Shown in pieces: positions 28,682 to 45,735 of a DNA stretch of 64,000 bases. The position numbers and the translations under genes are program-made. Below the pieces are notes generated by a model. The model searched no databases, was not told the DNA's origin, and saw only the letters and a program-made list of their open reading frames with translations. Numbering within the stretch: position 1 is the stretch's first letter; every line of letters begins with the position of its first letter. Source of the DNA: Lentisphaerae bacterium GWF2_50_93. Its GTDB lineage: Bacteria; Verrucomicrobiota; Lentisphaeria; Victivallales; GWF2-50-93. Where the stretch lies: NCBI GenBank assembly GCA_001804815.1, contig MHBI01000011.1, forward strand, positions 1,670 to 65,669. The letters run 5' to 3'.

Positions 28682-30183
28682 CAGGAGGCGTCCTCCCTAT
28701 GGTGAAGACTGGTCACGGGACGCGAGATGCTTCCAATGAATAGGAAGGCACAAATGAACGTTGCAGCCACAATGGCTACACAGGTATATTTGAAGAAGTC
28801 AATCCCGATTCCTCGCCAGGCAACAAAAGCAGTCACTGATGCCACCATAGCCGATATGAACAGCAACTTGAACCTTGAGCGTTCTCCGGCTATGACGGCC
28901 GCCACAGCCAGAAAGACCATTGGTGAAAGCATCTTGCCGATTGATTCAGGCATCCTAGCCGGCAATGCCGCGACAAAGAACTCAAACAGGACTATAAGCG
29001 CATAGATGTAGACGTATGGATTCTGTCGCTGGATGCAGGGCCACAGCATGATACCACCAAAGAGAATCCCGTATATGAACGGGAAGCAAAGAATCGCACC
29101 AATACCTCCCCACGAATAGAACTCCGCTGCATTGGGAAAGGAATACATCCCCCTTCCCGCCATGCCGCCTGCAAAGTAGAGGTCACGCATTTCAGAAATA
29201 AGTGACTGAGCATTCGTCGTTATGCCGGGAAGCATGTTGTTGAAGGATACCACGCAGTTTCCTAAGCCTGCATATGGAACCTCATTTGGGAAAAGGTTTA
29301 TTATCCATGCCGTCTGGTGTACTCGCATTTCGCGCATGGTCAGCGAAGAAGTGAACTTTTCAACTAGTTCCGTGAATTCAAGTTGGTTGTAGCGCAGCGC
29401 AGTTATCAGGAACAGAGGAACAATGACGAATAGGGCCCAGCGTATTCTCAGCCTGAATCCCTTGTTCTCACGGGTGAACAGAAGTAGCAGGAATATGAAT
29501 TCACAAGTGAACATGAGCAGGTTGAACCTTCCTCCATAGAGGATAAGGACACCGGCGAAGAGCAGGTATAGGATGACGCACAACCGCTTCCTGTCGGTTT
29601 CAAACGCCAATATGAAAAGCGCGTACTGGGGCAGTGGAACGAAATAGAACGCCAGATAGCAGAAAAATGGATTGGCCATGATTGCATTACTTGTTGCCAT
29701 CGCCCTGGTTGAGGCGATTTCAAAAAAACTGACCTCCTGGAGCAGAATCTTTATTATTACGAGATTGCATGCCATACCTATGATGAAAAGGAGGATTCCG
29801 GCTTGAACACGATGCTTGCCGAATTCGAATAGCCCTACGGATGCGACCTGAGACTCGGGTCTGGGACGGTAAAGGATGAGATATGCAATTCCAAGGCCGA
29901 TGAACAAGCCAACATATGTCAGAAGCGTCAACAACCATCCTGAGGACAGATCCGCCTCTGAGGCGTTCAGCCATGGCTTGCCGTTAATTGAGGATAGATC
30001 GGACACCTGTGAAAAACTCAGTGGCGTAACAGCAAGATCATAAACGGCGAAAAGTGCTGTAAAGCATAAGGCCAATGTGATAAATAGTAGTTCCGAGCGC
30101 TTTGACCTAAAGCGCCAGAGCGTGACAAGCAAAACTCCTCCAAGAACAAGAGTGACAATGAAAACTGGAATACTGTATAACAT
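28681..30183 (-). CDS. wzy: Putative oligosaccharide repeat-unit polymerase (Wzy-like), polytopic membrane protein
   Basis: 500 aa with at least 10 hydrophobic segments and no soluble-domain motifs. It sits among GTs and next to wzx in a Wzx/Wzy locus. The call rests on context only. Confidence 0.5.
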   Translation of the reverse strand: MLYSIPVFIVTLVLGGVLLVTLWRFRSKRSELLFITLALCFTALFAVYDLAVTPLSFSQVSDLSSINGKPWLNASEADLSSGWLLTLLTYVGLFIGLGIAYLILYRPRPESQVASVGLFEFGKHRVQAGILLFIIGMACNLVIIKILLQEVSFFEIASTRAMATSNAIMANPFFCYLAFYFVPLPQYALFILAFETDRKRLCVILYLLFAGVLILYGGRFNLLMFTCEFIFLLLLFTRENKGFRLRIRWALFVIVPLFLITALRYNQLEFTELVEKFTSSLTMREMRVHQTAWIINLFPNEVPYAGLGNCVVSFNNMLPGITTNAQSLISEMRDLYFAGGMAGRGMYSFPNAAEFYSWGGIGAILCFPFIYGILFGGIMLWPCIQRQNPYVYIYALIVLFEFFVAALPARMPESIGKMLSPMVFLAVAAVIAGERSRFKLLFISAMVASVTAFVAWRGIGIDFFKYTCVAIVAATFICAFLFIGSISRPVTSLHHREDAS

Positions 30184-35678: not shown

Positions 35679-35852
35679 GGCCGGGATATAAACACGAAAT
35701 ACACGAAAATAAGATTTTTATAACCACTAACAAGAGCACTGACGAATATTTGCTGCGAGTTTTATTCTCAGATGAGAATAAAATTCACAGCAAGGTGTTC
35801 ATGTTAATTCCTGTTAGTGTTTCCGTTAGTGTCCATTAGTGGTGAAGTCTTC
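35679..35852. repeat. CACGAA-word block + palindromic element (variant A)
   Basis: GGCCGGGATATAAACACGAAATACACGAAAATAAGATTTTTA is followed by TAACCACTAAC...ATATTTGCTGCGAG..ATTCTC-AGAT-GAGAAT..CACAGCAAGG...GTTAGTGTTTCCGTTAGTGTCCATTAGTGGTGAAGTC. The right arm encodes the last 9 codons of wzz. Confidence 0.85.
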
Positions 35853-40996: not shown

Positions 40997-42304
40997 TCAC
41001 TCCAGAAGCCATTTCCAAGCCGGGACAGCTCGTATTTTAACGCCTTCACTGCTGAAATATTGTTCTTCATTGCGGGTTACAATGAAGTTTTCCTTGACAC
41101 CGAAATATTTTGCAGTTGAAACCAGAGGGTCAACCTCCCTCTTAAGGGTTTCCTTGTCTGAAATGTCAATACAGACCTGTATGGTGGACGAAGGCCTTCC
41201 GCTGTTCCCGGTAACTATGAAATCCACTTCCTGCCTATGGGACTTCGTCAGATAGTAGTTCAATCTGGAGTGCCTTCTTTTGAGATGGACGAAGACCATG
41301 TTTTCAAAAGCGCGTGAAAGACTTCCATCCCATACAGGACTGTTATGGTTGGCAAGAGCCCAGTCAATACAGTAGTTCTTCTTGCTGTTCCTGTCGATCT
41401 CCTTTTGTGAGGAGCTGTAAATCGGGATCGGAAAGAAAAGCCAGGAATCTTCGGAGTGCTGGAGTAGTTTTAATACGGTATCCCTTCCTATGTGAAAACC
41501 GCATTGCCTGAGATATCCGTATGTGCTCTTATGGGATACTCCCTTCCCCATGCATGAGAGCAGGTACCTGTATAGATGGATGCATTCCCTGGGCTGGGTG
41601 ACACCAAATCTCTGTATCACATCCCTGAGTATCATGGTGTCAAAATATTCCCTCAGCAATTTCGCCTTTGAGCTCTCCTGGGTTTCCGTAAGGGCGGGAA
41701 ACCCTCCCCAGAGAAGATAGCTTTCTAGAAGGGAGTCCAGTCTTGCCTGTCCCACCGTCGAACCGACATCGGCATGAACGCGGTTGAAATCCAGAAATTC
41801 GCGGAAAGAAAGAGGATATATCTCGGTGCCTATTGATTTTCCGCGGAGTTCCTTTGCTGCGTCGTCCCTGAGAAGTTTGGACGAGGAGCCGGTGACGAGC
41901 ACCTTCCAGTTCCTGTTTCTTGAGAGTTCGATAACTGCGTTTTCCCAGCCATCTATCCTATATATCTCATCGAATATGAAAAGGGACGGCGTTTTCATGT
42001 CGAAGCTGGGATTGAGCTTGAGATATGATTTCTGTATGTCTAGAAGATCCTTCGCATTCATGGATGAAAGGACAGGATTGTCAAAGTCCAGGAAGCATAT
42101 GTTCCGTATTGAGGCGACCTGCCGTTGCCTCAGAAATTCATCGGCGACCTGCAGGGCTCTGAAGCTTTTTCCGGCACGCCTCGACCCTATGAGCGAGGAT
42201 ATCATGTTGGGAACGATATCGACCGGATCCAGCCTTGGCACGAATTCGGGAATGCCGTTTTTCCAGAAGTCCTCGAGTTTTCGGCCTATCTCGTTTGAAA
42301 TCAC
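40997..42304 (-). CDS. AAA+ ATPase with DUF4143 (AAA_14 family)
   Basis: 435 aa. Walker A is LIGSRRAGKSF and Walker B is LFIFDEIYRIDGWE. The C-terminal region has the typical WGGFP pattern. Confidence 0.8.
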   Translation of the reverse strand: MISNEIGRKLEDFWKNGIPEFVPRLDPVDIVPNMISSLIGSRRAGKSFRALQVADEFLRQRQVASIRNICFLDFDNPVLSSMNAKDLLDIQKSYLKLNPSFDMKTPSLFIFDEIYRIDGWENAVIELSRNRNWKVLVTGSSSKLLRDDAAKELRGKSIGTEIYPLSFREFLDFNRVHADVGSTVGQARLDSLLESYLLWGGFPALTETQESSKAKLLREYFDTMILRDVIQRFGVTQPRECIHLYRYLLSCMGKGVSHKSTYGYLRQCGFHIGRDTVLKLLQHSEDSWLFFPIPIYSSSQKEIDRNSKKNYCIDWALANHNSPVWDGSLSRAFENMVFVHLKRRHSRLNYYLTKSHRQEVDFIVTGNSGRPSSTIQVCIDISDKETLKREVDPLVSTAKYFGVKENFIVTRNEEQYFSSEGVKIRAVPAWKWLLE

Positions 42305-42422: not shown

Positions 42423-42785
42423 TTAACCACTAACGTCCACTAAAAAGAGACACTAACAGTACATATGCGTTGAATGCTATTTTTCAAAACAAAAATATCA
42501 TCCGACGCATGGTCTGTTTATAATTAAACTTTCATCCTGGTTAGTGTAAAATTAGTGTGGATTAGTGGTGAAGTCTTCAGTTTTCTTTACGGAACGCCGG
42601 CACCCCTGCCGGCATGTTTCTTTTCTTCTTATATAACTATGCCACCAGGTCTCAAGATCCCGGCCACGAAGTGCGTCGGGATTGGTGGCGTTCCATGATT
42701 CGCTGATTACCGACCCCGGATTACCGATTACGCCATCCGTCGTCCGTCCTCCGTCCCCTGCCGGCTGCCCACTGCCCACTGATTC
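42423..42785. repeat. Direct repeat copy 2 (~365 bp)
   Basis: See copy 1. Only scattered substitutions were seen (e.g. CTAATCTAC vs CTAACGTCC, AATCAGTG vs AATTAGTG). Confidence 0.9.
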
Positions 42786-42892: not shown

Positions 42893-43255
42893 ATCCATTA
42901 CATGCAAACGCTTATTCACCACTAACGTACACTAAAAAGAGACACTAACGGTACGTATTAATTAAACTATATCGTTTACTTAATCCGTACTAATAGAGGT
43001 AATTTCAAAACTCAAGGAATGGTCATGGCAAGCATGACCCTCCACGCCCGAAACGGGCGTAAGAATGGAGGGACGCGGTTTTGCCTTCGGCAAGCATCGC
43101 TTCGCTAAGCTAAGCCGCGTCCGAAGTTTTGAAATTACCTCAATAATCAAATTCACAGCAAGGCCTGGTTTATAAATTCCGAGTCATAAAAACTCCAGCA
43201 CTCCATAACTTTAGAACTTTAGAACTCCCCTTCAGTGTCCATTAGTGGTGAAGTC
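42893..43255. repeat. Palindromic element copy with an expanded/interrupted apex
   Basis: The left part is AATCCATTACATGCAAACGCTTATTCACCACTAACGTACACTAAAAAGAGACACTAACG. The right part is ...ATTCACAGCAAGG...CAGTGTCCATTAGTGGTGAAGTC. The left apex half is replaced by new sequence that includes the 146-bp insert. Confidence 0.75.
42996..43141. repeat. 146-bp insert bounded by perfect 17-bp inverted repeats, highly structured (MITE-like element or ncRNA)
   Basis: GAGGTAATTTCAAAACT ... AGTTTTGAAATTACCTC. Internal helices are GGTCATG/CATGACC, CCCTCCA/TGGAGGG enclosing ACGCCCG-AAA-CGGGCGT, and GACGCGG/CCGCGTC enclosing TTGCC-TTC-GGCAA. Confidence 0.6.
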
Positions 43256-43320
43256 TTCTCGTTCCGAACTTTCGAACTTCCGCATTCCCTCTTTCTCAGA
43301 CCACGGATCACCGTCCTCCT

Positions 43321-43398
43321 GCCCACTGCCCACTGCCCACTGCCCACCGCCCACTGCCCACTGCTCACTGCCCACCGCCCACTGCCCACTGCCCACTG
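43321..43398. repeat. Heptamer tandem repeat (GCCCACT) x11
   Basis: Eleven consecutive 7-mers, three of them variants (GCCCACC x2, GCTCACT). The complementary strand reads (CAGTGGG)n, a G-quadruplex-type motif. Confidence 0.95.
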
Positions 43399-43520
43399 TC
43401 TGCCAGCCACTTTCCGATCTTTCAGGAGTATTTCCCTTGATTTTACCTAGTGCCTGATTATCTTCAAGGTGCGAGACAATTGCAAAAACGGATCTTTCGT
43501 TGAAATATATGATCTATGCT

Positions 43521-43738
43521 GTGCCGCCACCCTGCGGGGGCTGGAAAATTTATTTAATGAATTATCATCCCCACGCTTACGCATGAGGCTACAATATGAC
43601 ACCCTCTGTGAGGGTTGAATATAAAAAAGGCATTTTTAAATAGCCTCCGCAGGAGGTGAAATCCTGTAGCCCAAAGGCGTAAGCCTTGGGAGATATGGAT
43701 TATATAAAAGACAACAAGCCCCCGCAGGGCGGCGACAC
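43521..43738. repeat. 218-bp element bounded by 22-bp inverted repeats, internally structured
   Basis: GTGCCGCCACCCTGCGGGGGCT ... AGCCCCCGCAGGGCGGCGACAC (20/22 complementary). Internal helices are GGCTACA/TGTAGCC enclosing ACCCTC-TGT-GAGGGT and CCTCC-GCA-GGAGG, then CCCAAAGGC-GTAA-GCCTTGGG. Confidence 0.6.
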
Positions 43739-43788
43739 TTAAAGAAAAATACAGATATAAAGTGATAGGAGTTGACAAATAAGTCTTT

Positions 43789-45735
43789 ATGGCAATTAAG
43801 GGAAAAATACTATACTGCGGAACGACGTTGCTTAATTTATTCAAAGATTTTGCCTCTAATGCAAAGGGGAATATCACAGCGGCTGTTATTGCAGCTATAG
43901 CAGCGTTCATACCGCTGATAGTGCATCTGAGGATTGTCCCCCTCCCACCGGACACAGCCATGTATTGGCCCACCGGCACAAATTACGATTTTTTCTCCTA
44001 CTACAAGATGGTATGGTTTTTGGTTTTAACATTGTTTGCACTTATTATTTTTATCATTGGCCTGAAATATAAAAAAATAGCTCTCACGAAGACCTGGATA
44101 TACGTGCCTGTCGGGATATATGCTTTGACAGCCATCCTCTCAACTGTATTCGCAAAACACAAGGACGCTGCCCTTTTCGGCTTCCCGGACAGATACGAAG
44201 GGCTGTTTGTCATCCTCGGATATATCCTTGTCTTCATCATAACCTTGAATGTCGCCCAGAACAGAGGAGCCTTGAAGCTGATTCTGACTGGGCTTTTCTT
44301 CTCGGCATTTTTTGCCTCCCTGATAGGACTCTTCCAATTCATCGGCACGATTCAGTTGTTTGGGAAGACATACGTGCTTGATTTATTCAAGACCAGCCTG
44401 GGGCAGTGGTTGATTGTCCCAGGGGCCTACAGGGATGCGCTGACCCTTGATTTCCGCTTCGCCGTCCATCAGGTCTACACAACCCTGTATAACACCAATT
44501 TTGTTGGAAGCTTCATGGAGATGACGCTTCTACTCTCGATTGTTCTCTTCATCTATGATCCCAACAAGAAAAGAAAGCTGATTTACTGCATATTGGCTAT
44601 GCTTATCTTCACCAACTGGCTTGGCTGTCTTTCAAGGGCAGGGTACCTCGGAGCTGCCGCCTCGATCCTGATCTTATTCATCGTCGCTGTCTTCCGGTAT
44701 AATCCGCTGAAGAAGGAATCAAAAGGCAGTTCCGTTCGCTCCTTATGCATAAATTCAATCCTCATCATCTGCTTGTTCACTGTATTGTTCCTCTTTTTGA
44801 ACTTCTTCTCGAAAAGCACTATTACCATGCAGTTCTCAAGACTTTTGGATACGGCTGACAGGATAATAACCGCTTCCGACTCAGACGCGCAGCCAACAAA
44901 GACTCAGGATATCTTTCAGACCAAGCCAAAGGACGAGATAAAGGATATCAGGATCACCCCTGACACGATCTATTACTCAACAACAGATGCAGACATGAAG
45001 ATCAGGTTAATCGGAAATGATCTGCAATTTTCCACAGGGGATGGGAATCAGCTCGTTCCAACCTTTGATAAAAAGAAGAATGGATACGTATTTAATTATC
45101 CGAAGTATTCAAAATTCATGTTTAACCTTGCAAAGAACAATGTTCTTTTCCTGTATTATAGAAAACTCATCATTCAGGTCGCTATCACAAACCAAGGATT
45201 CAAGAATTATGATGAGCGGTTTGGAATTACGGATGTAAAGGAGATCCCTTCCTGGGGGTTCGAAGGCATGGAAAGGAAGGCGACCCGCTTTTATGGATGG
45301 TCCAGGTCCATCCCCATGCTGAAAGATACTGTTGTCCTAGGCAACGGACCGGATACCTTTGCCCTCCATTTTCCCCAGCTTGACTATGTCGCCAAAATGA
45401 AATATTACGCCGATCCATATCTGATAATCGACAAGCCCCACAACATGTACCTGCAGATTGCATTAAACACAGGAGTTGTCTCCCTTATATGCGTCCTAAT
45501 TATTTTCGTCTCGTATATAGCCACGAGCATCAAGATAATATTGACAAATATGACGCGCTCCATCTACACGACCATCTCGCTGGGAGTCTTTCTCGGCACT
45601 ACCGCCTATATGATAACCGCCTTCTTCAACGATTCCCTTATATCCGTAGCGCCTGTCTTCTGGATCATGCTGGGACTCGGATATGCGGTGAATTTTGTGG
45701 TGCTTGGTGAAAGACAGCAGGGGACAGTGAACTGA
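43789..45735 (+). CDS. O-antigen ligase family (Wzy_C domain) membrane protein with a large periplasmic insert
   Basis: 648 aa with at least 10 TM segments. It carries the CLSRAGYLGAAASILILF motif region and a soluble segment of about 170 aa between TM blocks. Confidence 0.65.
   Translation: MAIKGKILYCGTTLLNLFKDFASNAKGNITAAVIAAIAAFIPLIVHLRIVPLPPDTAMYWPTGTNYDFFSYYKMVWFLVLTLFALIIFIIGLKYKKIALTKTWIYVPVGIYALTAILSTVFAKHKDAALFGFPDRYEGLFVILGYILVFIITLNVAQNRGALKLILTGLFFSAFFASLIGLFQFIGTIQLFGKTYVLDLFKTSLGQWLIVPGAYRDALTLDFRFAVHQVYTTLYNTNFVGSFMEMTLLLSIVLFIYDPNKKRKLIYCILAMLIFTNWLGCLSRAGYLGAAASILILFIVAVFRYNPLKKESKGSSVRSLCINSILIICLFTVLFLFLNFFSKSTITMQFSRLLDTADRIITASDSDAQPTKTQDIFQTKPKDEIKDIRITPDTIYYSTTDADMKIRLIGNDLQFSTGDGNQLVPTFDKKKNGYVFNYPKYSKFMFNLAKNNVLFLYYRKLIIQVAITNQGFKNYDERFGITDVKEIPSWGFEGMERKATRFYGWSRSIPMLKDTVVLGNGPDTFALHFPQLDYVAKMKYYADPYLIIDKPHNMYLQIALNTGVVSLICVLIIFVSYIATSIKIILTNMTRSIYTTISLGVFLGTTAYMITAFFNDSLISVAPVFWIMLGLGYAVNFVVLGERQQGTVN

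Follow-up and report, generated by a model that had tools for sequence, protein, structure and literature searches.

A probable IS1182-type MITE with a REPIN-like doublet inside, from an uncultured groundwater Lentisphaerota lineage

The 146-bp structured insert at positions 42996-43141 of a 64,000-nt stretch of DNA from Lentisphaerae bacterium GWF2_50_93 (the window, that is, the whole stretch analysed) is very probably an IS1182-type MITE with a REPIN-like doublet inside. The element is largely ordinary and has one unusual feature, its REP-doublet core. A preliminary description, made from the letters of the window, had offered either a MITE-like element or a compact structured ncRNA or ribozyme; the MITE reading is the one upheld, by a multicopy family, duplications of 4-5 bp, ends of the IS1182 family and an empty site for a sister copy. 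The genome searched is the window's source MAG (G000; 6.42 Mb, 120 contigs, 91% complete). Features of the element and its host repeat, in window coordinates, are the following.

about 42912..43258, no strand: decayed CACTAA/TTAGTG-box palindromic element hosting the insertion (arm and apex matches to other copies in the window)
42992..42995, no strand: left target-site duplication AATA (read directly in the sequence)
42996..43012, + strand: left terminal inverted repeat GAGGTAATTTCAAAACT (16/17 bases as in the transposase-proximal IS end GAGGTAATTTCAAAAGT)
43021..43044, + strand: REP-like unit 1, GGTCATG-GCAAG-CATGACC with CTCCA tail (fits the unit format, covarying stems)
43045..43059, + strand: variable middle hairpin CGCCCG-AAA-CGGGCG, variant A of three (copy alignment, interchangeable variants)
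43066..43122, - strand: inverted REP-like unit 2, with TGGAG tail, stem GGACGCGG/CCGCGTCC and a 36-nt loop insert at 43079-43114 (sister-copy comparison)
43125..43141, - strand: right terminal inverted repeat, AGTTTTGAAATTACCTC on the + strand (read directly, exact reverse complement of the left)
43142..43145, no strand: right target-site duplication AATA (read directly in the sequence)

Direct reading of both termini, at 42996-43012 and 43125-43141, confirms the perfect 17-bp terminal inverted repeats first claimed for the element, and a repeat-pair search of the window extends the inverted repeat to 20 nt at 95% identity. The 4-bp direct duplication AATA, absent from the preliminary description, flanks the element on both sides (42992-42995 and 43142-43145) and points to a simple insertion with no deletion. 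The element is set in a spacer of 1.5 kb whose flanking genes diverge, with the end of the upstream ORF at 42304 and the start of the next gene at 43789. The sole ORF over the element is a 58-aa frame spanning the repeat, so that the 146 bp are, as had been stated, without coding capacity; promoter and terminator scans give no prediction within the element. The element is not an assembly artefact, since an independent assembly from the same groundwater population shows it in the identical position (99.8% over 1100 bp, without gaps).

All three helices of the preliminary description are present, at 43021-43039, 43038-43072 and 43071-43122. The first is GGTCATG-GCAAG-CATGACC (43021-43039). In the second, CCCTCCA (43038-43044) pairs with TGGAGGG (43066-43072) and encloses CGCCCG-AAA-CGGGCG (43045-43059), while in the third GGACGCGG (43071-43078) pairs with CCGCGTCC (43115-43122) around a 36-nt insert that includes TTGCC-TTC-GGCAA. 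The stability of the fold is far above chance: the + strand RNA of the 146-mer reaches -76.0 kcal/mol, where its shuffles give -40.7 +/- 4.1 (z = -8.5), and the - strand RNA reaches -72.9 kcal/mol (z = -8.2); the shuffle average is about -40.5 kcal/mol and 0 of 200 shuffles are as stable.

A fold of this kind could belong to a compact structured ncRNA or ribozyme, in which the 17-bp termini would be the closing helix and the three hairpins the functional fold. The stability itself, the covariation of the hairpin stems across the wider repeat family and two G-U-preserving transitions in the copy at C88:17627 are what such an RNA would lead one to expect, but on the whole this explanation is very improbable. 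The reverse strand folds equally well, and an Rfam search at E<=10, a check proposed at the outset, gives no family over 42996-43141. Orientation relative to genes shows no bias among 36 copies anchored on the first hairpin (tandem, 6 sense and 5 antisense; divergent, 8; convergent, 8; gene contexts being heuristic ORF calls). The terminal helix is mispaired, with no compensation, where the two IS ends differ: its positions 5 and 6 are unpaired in 10 and 7, respectively, of 20 distinct aligned copies, and these are exactly the positions that distinguish one IS end from the other (GAGGTA vs GAGCCA). The terminal arms are thus putative protein sites and not a selected stem. Target duplications and identity to IS ends are left unexplained by an RNA gene, and the core is a mosaic of interchangeable modules. 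With no Rfam match, no orientation bias and an uncompensated terminal stem, the ncRNA/ribozyme candidate is not retained.

The MITE is supported by its copy family. A BLAST search with the element against the 6.4-Mb genome gives 68 matches across about 45 loci, and the element is accordingly multicopy rather than single-copy. Near-identical 146-bp copies are found at C71:129682, C11 (the window copy), C88:19186 and C88:17627, with 100, 100, 99 and 98% identity over 146 bp, the last of these carrying the two transitions mentioned above, and the flanks of the four are unrelated. A 113-bp form, equal to the element minus positions 86-118, is found at C92:1803 and C19:70488. That the 1.5-kb spacer is full of other repeats could suggest a chance palindrome, or an artefact of local duplication in a repeat-rich region. 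This has practically no probability, since chance would give a perfect 17-bp inverted repeat spanning no more than 150 bp about 0.0006 times per 64 kb (simple arithmetic), identical copies stand in different flanks on four contigs, and the independent assembly carries the element; the copy family by itself already refutes it. A solo match to the terminal repeat at 29711-29725, within a coding region, appears to be chance.

With the relaxed terminus pattern GAGSYRATTTCAAAA, which has 441 occurrences in the genome at <=2 mismatches, at least 60 short elements of 96-433 bp are found to be bounded by such termini, and these belong to several families with unrelated interiors. The check for target-site duplications, AATA in the window copy, gives exact direct duplications of 4-5 bp in 29/60 TIR-paired elements, against about 1.1 expected when flank partners are shuffled; 28/60 have no exact duplication, some of them with a 1-nt offset. 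At least four further short families (about 101, 113, 131 and 159 bp) have the same IS1182-like termini around unrelated GC-rich hairpin cores, for example at C15:409-567, C10:115618-115730 and C12:76458-76558. The 159-bp family starts with a perfect 22-bp palindrome, GAGGCAATTTCAAAATTGCCTC, that resembles two abutted termini. TIR-bounded intervals of 0.6-4 kb, considered as transposase carriers, were rejected as ordinary genes between two separate small elements.

Two loci among the copies have features of their own. At C88:17627-19331 two near-identical 146-bp copies lie in direct orientation around a 1.4-kb segment with one 329-aa gene. Each copy has its own duplication, so that the pair represents two insertions and was rejected as a composite transposon; recombination between the copies could delete the 329-aa gene. 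At G000:C108:65500-65640 a decayed copy apparently lies in coding-looking sequence, both flanks being in open frame, and may be an in-frame insertion as for Rickettsia palindromic elements. Beyond the source genome, the full element, TIRs plus core, is found in 11/17 other genomes of the taxonomic family, and the element family spans five genera. The full element was not found in two large sister families, where the intact IS is common.

Termini of this kind lead to a partner insertion sequence. Within the 91%-complete MAG, searches with PF01609, PF13586 and tblastn with the full transposase give no intact cognate DDE transposase, only remnants. Multicopy insertion sequences are often missing from assemblies. 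One remnant, at C70:39245-39490, is a C-terminal fragment of DDE_Tnp_1 (69 aa) located 75 bp from a terminus-like GAGCCGATTGCAAAACT. The other, at C55:18752-19053, is a 302-bp TIR-bounded element that retains 39 transposase codons (residues 221-259) and is a deletion intermediate between IS and MITE. When the order was searched with the C70 fragment, full-length transposase genes of 366-399 aa were found in 33/201 genomes, within elements of about 1395 bp whose ends are GAGGTAATTTCAAAAGT and GAGCCAATTTCAAAAGTATTGGCTC. Intact elements of about 1395 bp in Lentisphaeria/Victivallales MAGs, at more than 15 loci, have the ends GAGGTAATTTCAAAAGT and GAGCCAATTTCAAAAGT. The terminus of the MITE shares 16/17 bases with GAGGTAATTTCAAAAGT, the transposase-proximal end. 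The search for a transposase with matching termini, also proposed at the outset, thus arrives at an IS1182-like IS in related Lentisphaeria, with remnants only in the MAG itself. A scan of species-representative genomes gives 108 transposase relatives, the close ones mostly in Lentisphaeria/Victivallales MAGs; the complete MAG CP091727.1 has at least 12 copies of the IS. Target duplications of the IS copies are mostly 4 bp, the same length class as those of the MITE.

The partner IS is best called IS1182-like. Its transposase has the domains DUF772 and DDE_Tnp_1, both above Pfam cut-offs. The NCBIfam IS1182 model NF033551 gives the best score but one below its cut-off (105.6 vs 270 bits), and the IS5_4 model scores 69.8 vs a cut-off of 140. 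Annotated plasmid relatives at 38-45% identity carry the name IS1182 family, and the ends of ISUnCu17, GAGCCTCTTGCAAAA and GAGCTTCTTGCAAAA, have the same terminal motif. According to the preliminary description, a match of the termini to a known IS end would make the element a routine MITE; the termini match IS1182-like ends, and by that measure a routine MITE is therefore what it is.

The insertion lies in a decayed copy of another palindromic element, as had been proposed, and this is right in outline. Repeat comparison in the window matches the host arms at 42915-42958 and 43234-43258 to a palindromic-element copy at 42423-42578, and the right apex half of the host, AATAATCAAATTCACAGCAAGG, corresponds to GAGAATAAAATTCACAGCAAGG at 35774 (match 35774-35795). 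Both outer arms and the right apex half are retained. Less exact is the further claim that the left apex half was replaced by the insert: between the left arm of the host and the insert lies a 45-nt stretch (42951-42995) of unrelated sequence, and the right inner arm of the host has also diverged.

Other repeats in the spacer can be listed for themselves. An element of about 230 bp at window 43503-43744, with 22-bp inverted arms at 43521-43542 and 43717-43738, is repeated in high copy number throughout the genus; genome G065 has more than 30 copies, 79-84% identical. A match to the Acido-Lenti-1 RNA within the element (43569-43616) stays below threshold (24 bits vs a gathering score of 37), and the arm sequence of the element, GCCGCCACCCTGCGGGGGCT, recurs just downstream of an IS200-type gene at G000:C54:1447. 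An array of CCCACTG heptamers at window 43305-43418 forms the contig end in two other compared public assemblies (L181 from the right, L183 from the left); it apparently varies in length, one JGI contig (L181:1-130) having a longer array than the window. A cyanobacterial Nezha-type MITE, suggested by the heptamer arrays, was rejected, the relatives being from Lentisphaeria/Victivallales.

An empty site for the window copy was not found among congeners, other assemblies of the population and JGI metagenome contigs. The spacer is not conserved in congeners, where only other repeat families match, and the other population assemblies either break in the adjacent CCCACTG array or carry the element at the same place. 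Among contigs encoding the flanking proteins, the right-hand ones break in the heptamer array and one left-hand contig spans the site with the element; the 27-mer of the empty site is absent from the JGI metagenome contigs. A sister copy supplies the empty site. The young 113-bp copy at C19:70488 lies on the stop codon of a Kdo-kinase-like gene, with the junction between TA and G and the duplication GAGTA, and in congeners G077 and G051 the same two convergent genes are still neighbours, but the short spacer between them is free of the element. At this locus (G000:C19:70485-70605) the element restores the stop with its first base, from ancestral TAA to TA plus G, and the protein is therefore unchanged.

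The core is where the element departs from the ordinary. Hairpin 1 with its 3' tail is GGTCATG-GCAAG-CATGACC-CTCCA, and hairpin 3 of the 113-bp form, taken from the opposite strand, is GGACGCG-GCAAG-CGCGTCC-CTCCA. The two share one unit format, and the interior therefore consists of two inverted copies of one kind of unit, whose CTCCA/TGGAG tails pair around the small middle hairpin. The three helices first described are thus real, and their meaning is revised to that of a doublet of inverted REP-like units from a RAYT-associated family. Unit 2 has two forms: in the 113-bp sisters it is GGACGCG-CTTGC-CGCGTCC, with a 5-nt loop, and in the window copy the 5-nt loop has become the insert of about 36 nt. 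The long-loop form is also found beside the RAYT gene discussed below (G000:C51:685-757). Three variants of the middle hairpin (A, B, C) and the two forms of unit 2 occur in all six combinations.

A stem-agnostic pattern, GG-N5-RCAAG-N5-CCCTCC, gives 87 units in the genome vs 0 for the reversed pattern used as control. Across 31 distinct units (genome plus fetched loci) covariation is seen at every one of the five variable stem pairs: double-change cells number 42 vs 14.3 in shuffles, and 0/500 shuffles reach the observed score; the signal collapses in slid registers. The invariant flank of the units is CTCC (GGAG on the other strand), not GTAG or CGTC. As to arrangement, 26 convergent doublets with spacers of 22-42 nt are found vs 2 divergent and 3 tandem pairs, and doublets without IS ends are present at no fewer than 10 loci (at least 10). 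At one locus, G000:C75:78420-78502, a 30-bp sequence, ATGGAGGGTCGCGCTTGCCGCGACCGTGAT (a REP unit with a linker), is repeated three times in tandem after a doublet, so as to resemble a BIME-like array.

These units are associated with a gene. The 161-aa protein encoded at C51:157-639 passes the REP-associated tyrosine transposase (RAYT) model NF047646 at 90.1 bits vs a cut-off of 80. Its sequence has an HVH motif and an DYIRMNPVRKGLV motif, both typical of RAYTs. Units are found on both sides of the gene within about 60-180 bp. RAYT orthologues at 53-69% identity are found in five other genomes of the family, with units within about 60 bp that have the same format and other stems (GGTTTTG/CAAAACC, GGCCACG/CGTGGCC, GGTCGCG/CGCGACC); distant RAYT paralogues have no units alongside. 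In a count covering 18 genomes of the family, those with a RAYT orthologue (7 genomes) have 87, 50, 45, 37, 18, 18 and 8 units, and those in which none was detected (11 genomes) have 26, 18, 4, 2, 1 and 1, with 0 in five genomes. Unit counts thus track the RAYT orthologue across the family. The exceptions are G018 and G055, which have 26 and 18 units, no RAYT orthologue detected, and units of the stem types of the MITE. The C51 locus (L086, G000:C51:1-840), a single-copy RAYT gene embedded in arrays of GG-N5-GCAAG-N5'-CC-CTCCA units, would appear to be a so far undescribed REP-RAYT system of Lentisphaerota, with GGAG/CTCC as its tag. A Y1 transposase at C54, 800 bp from a copy, was set aside: it is an IS200-type gene with another ORF between, and its proximity was treated as coincidence.

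Given such a gene, the whole element might be a pure REPIN or BIME moved by the RAYT, its outer inverted repeats being the outer hairpin of the REPIN and not DDE sites. The architecture of the core is that of the TIR-less doublets flanking the RAYT, the family persists across five genera, and the MAG has no intact DDE transposase, all of which would suit this explanation. It is nonetheless improbable. HUH/Y1 transposition makes no 4-5 bp duplications, and duplications are present here at the same length as those of the IS; the outer 17 bp equal the IS ends and also bound several other families with unrelated cores, whereas the TIR-less doublets are entirely without these ends.

For the IS1182-type MITE the following course of events is proposed. 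At the 17-bp termini the DDE transposase of an IS1182-family IS of about 1.4 kb would bind and cleave, and this transposase, of which the MAG has no intact copy, would move the element in trans. A staggered cut of 4 bp in a different intergenic repeat, of which the host is a decayed copy, would have let the element in and given the AATA duplication. The interior would be almost wholly a REPIN-like doublet, its tails paired around a variable hairpin and the loop of the second unit expanded. Mobility through a DDE transposase is supported by the ends and duplications as read in the sequence; as for the core hairpins, we infer from association and covariation only that they may be recognised by the RAYT. 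Should the element affect genes next to it, it would do so by forming stable stem-loops in transcripts or by recombination of one copy with another. It is possible, although we hold it to be somewhat doubtful, that the element is a true hybrid, a RAYT-type REPIN doublet that acquired the inverted repeats of a DDE (IS1182-like) IS. If so, there would be two routes of spread, and REPINs could amplify or persist in genomes without their RAYT (cf. G018 and G055).

As a MITE the element has little importance in itself, beyond explaining the structured insert. It marks recent transposon activity in an uncultured groundwater lineage of Lentisphaerota, and many contig breaks and repeat-rich spacers are explained by its family. 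More is gained from the core, which would define a REP/REPIN-RAYT system of Lentisphaerota, tagged GGAG/CTCC, whose doublets in this genome mostly travel within DDE-type inverted repeats. In the literature REPINs and MITEs are generally set against each other as distinct kinds of element (PMC3116915) that differ in their rates and in their fates (Bertels & Rainey, bioRxiv 10.1101/2021.07.10.451892), and a natural hybrid would let that contrast be tested.

Known systems share parts of this arrangement. ISUnCu17 and the IS1182 family have a DUF772 plus DDE_Tnp_1 transposase at 38-45% identity, the terminal motif GAG-N4-TT(G/T)CAAAA and a length of about 1.4-1.5 kb; the Lentisphaeria transposases differ in being shorter (about 370 aa) and under the cut-off of the NCBI IS1182 model. 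IS-derived MITEs of bacteria, such as Correia/NEMIS of Neisseria, RUP of S. pneumoniae, Nezha of cyanobacteria and Chunjie of Geobacter (for reviews see PMC10969869 and PMC3184786), are likewise non-coding elements of 100-300 bp, with TIRs identical to those of a full-length IS, short target-site duplications, many dispersed and mostly intergenic copies and strong predicted structure. The present element, however, has as its partner an IS of the IS1182 family from Lentisphaeria and as its interior a REP doublet rather than a deletion remnant of that IS, and several unrelated cores share the same termini in one genome. A partial precedent for a REP inside a MITE, as far as the account in PMC10969869 goes, is QMITE2 of Coxiella burnetii, which contains a REP-type palindrome (a GTAG REP). 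It differs in that its REP is given there as a known target of IS1111, and that account states neither a RAYT link nor an inverted REP doublet as the whole core.

The likeness to REPINs or BIMEs and their RAYTs (Bertels & Rainey 2011, PMC3116915; Nunvar et al. 2010, PMC2817692) lies in the core. In both, two short inverted GC-rich palindromes form one larger hairpin, the stems covary while the bases of loop and tag stay fixed, a RAYT gene present in single copy has units on its flanks (here and at its orthologues), and tandem or alternating arrays are found at some loci. The system described here differs in its host, Lentisphaerota, and in its tag, GGAG/CTCC, which belongs to neither the GTAG nor the CGTC superfamily (Di Nocera et al. 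2013, PMC3733652). It differs also in that most of its doublets are wrapped in DDE-type inverted repeats with target duplications, whereas REPINs are without them.
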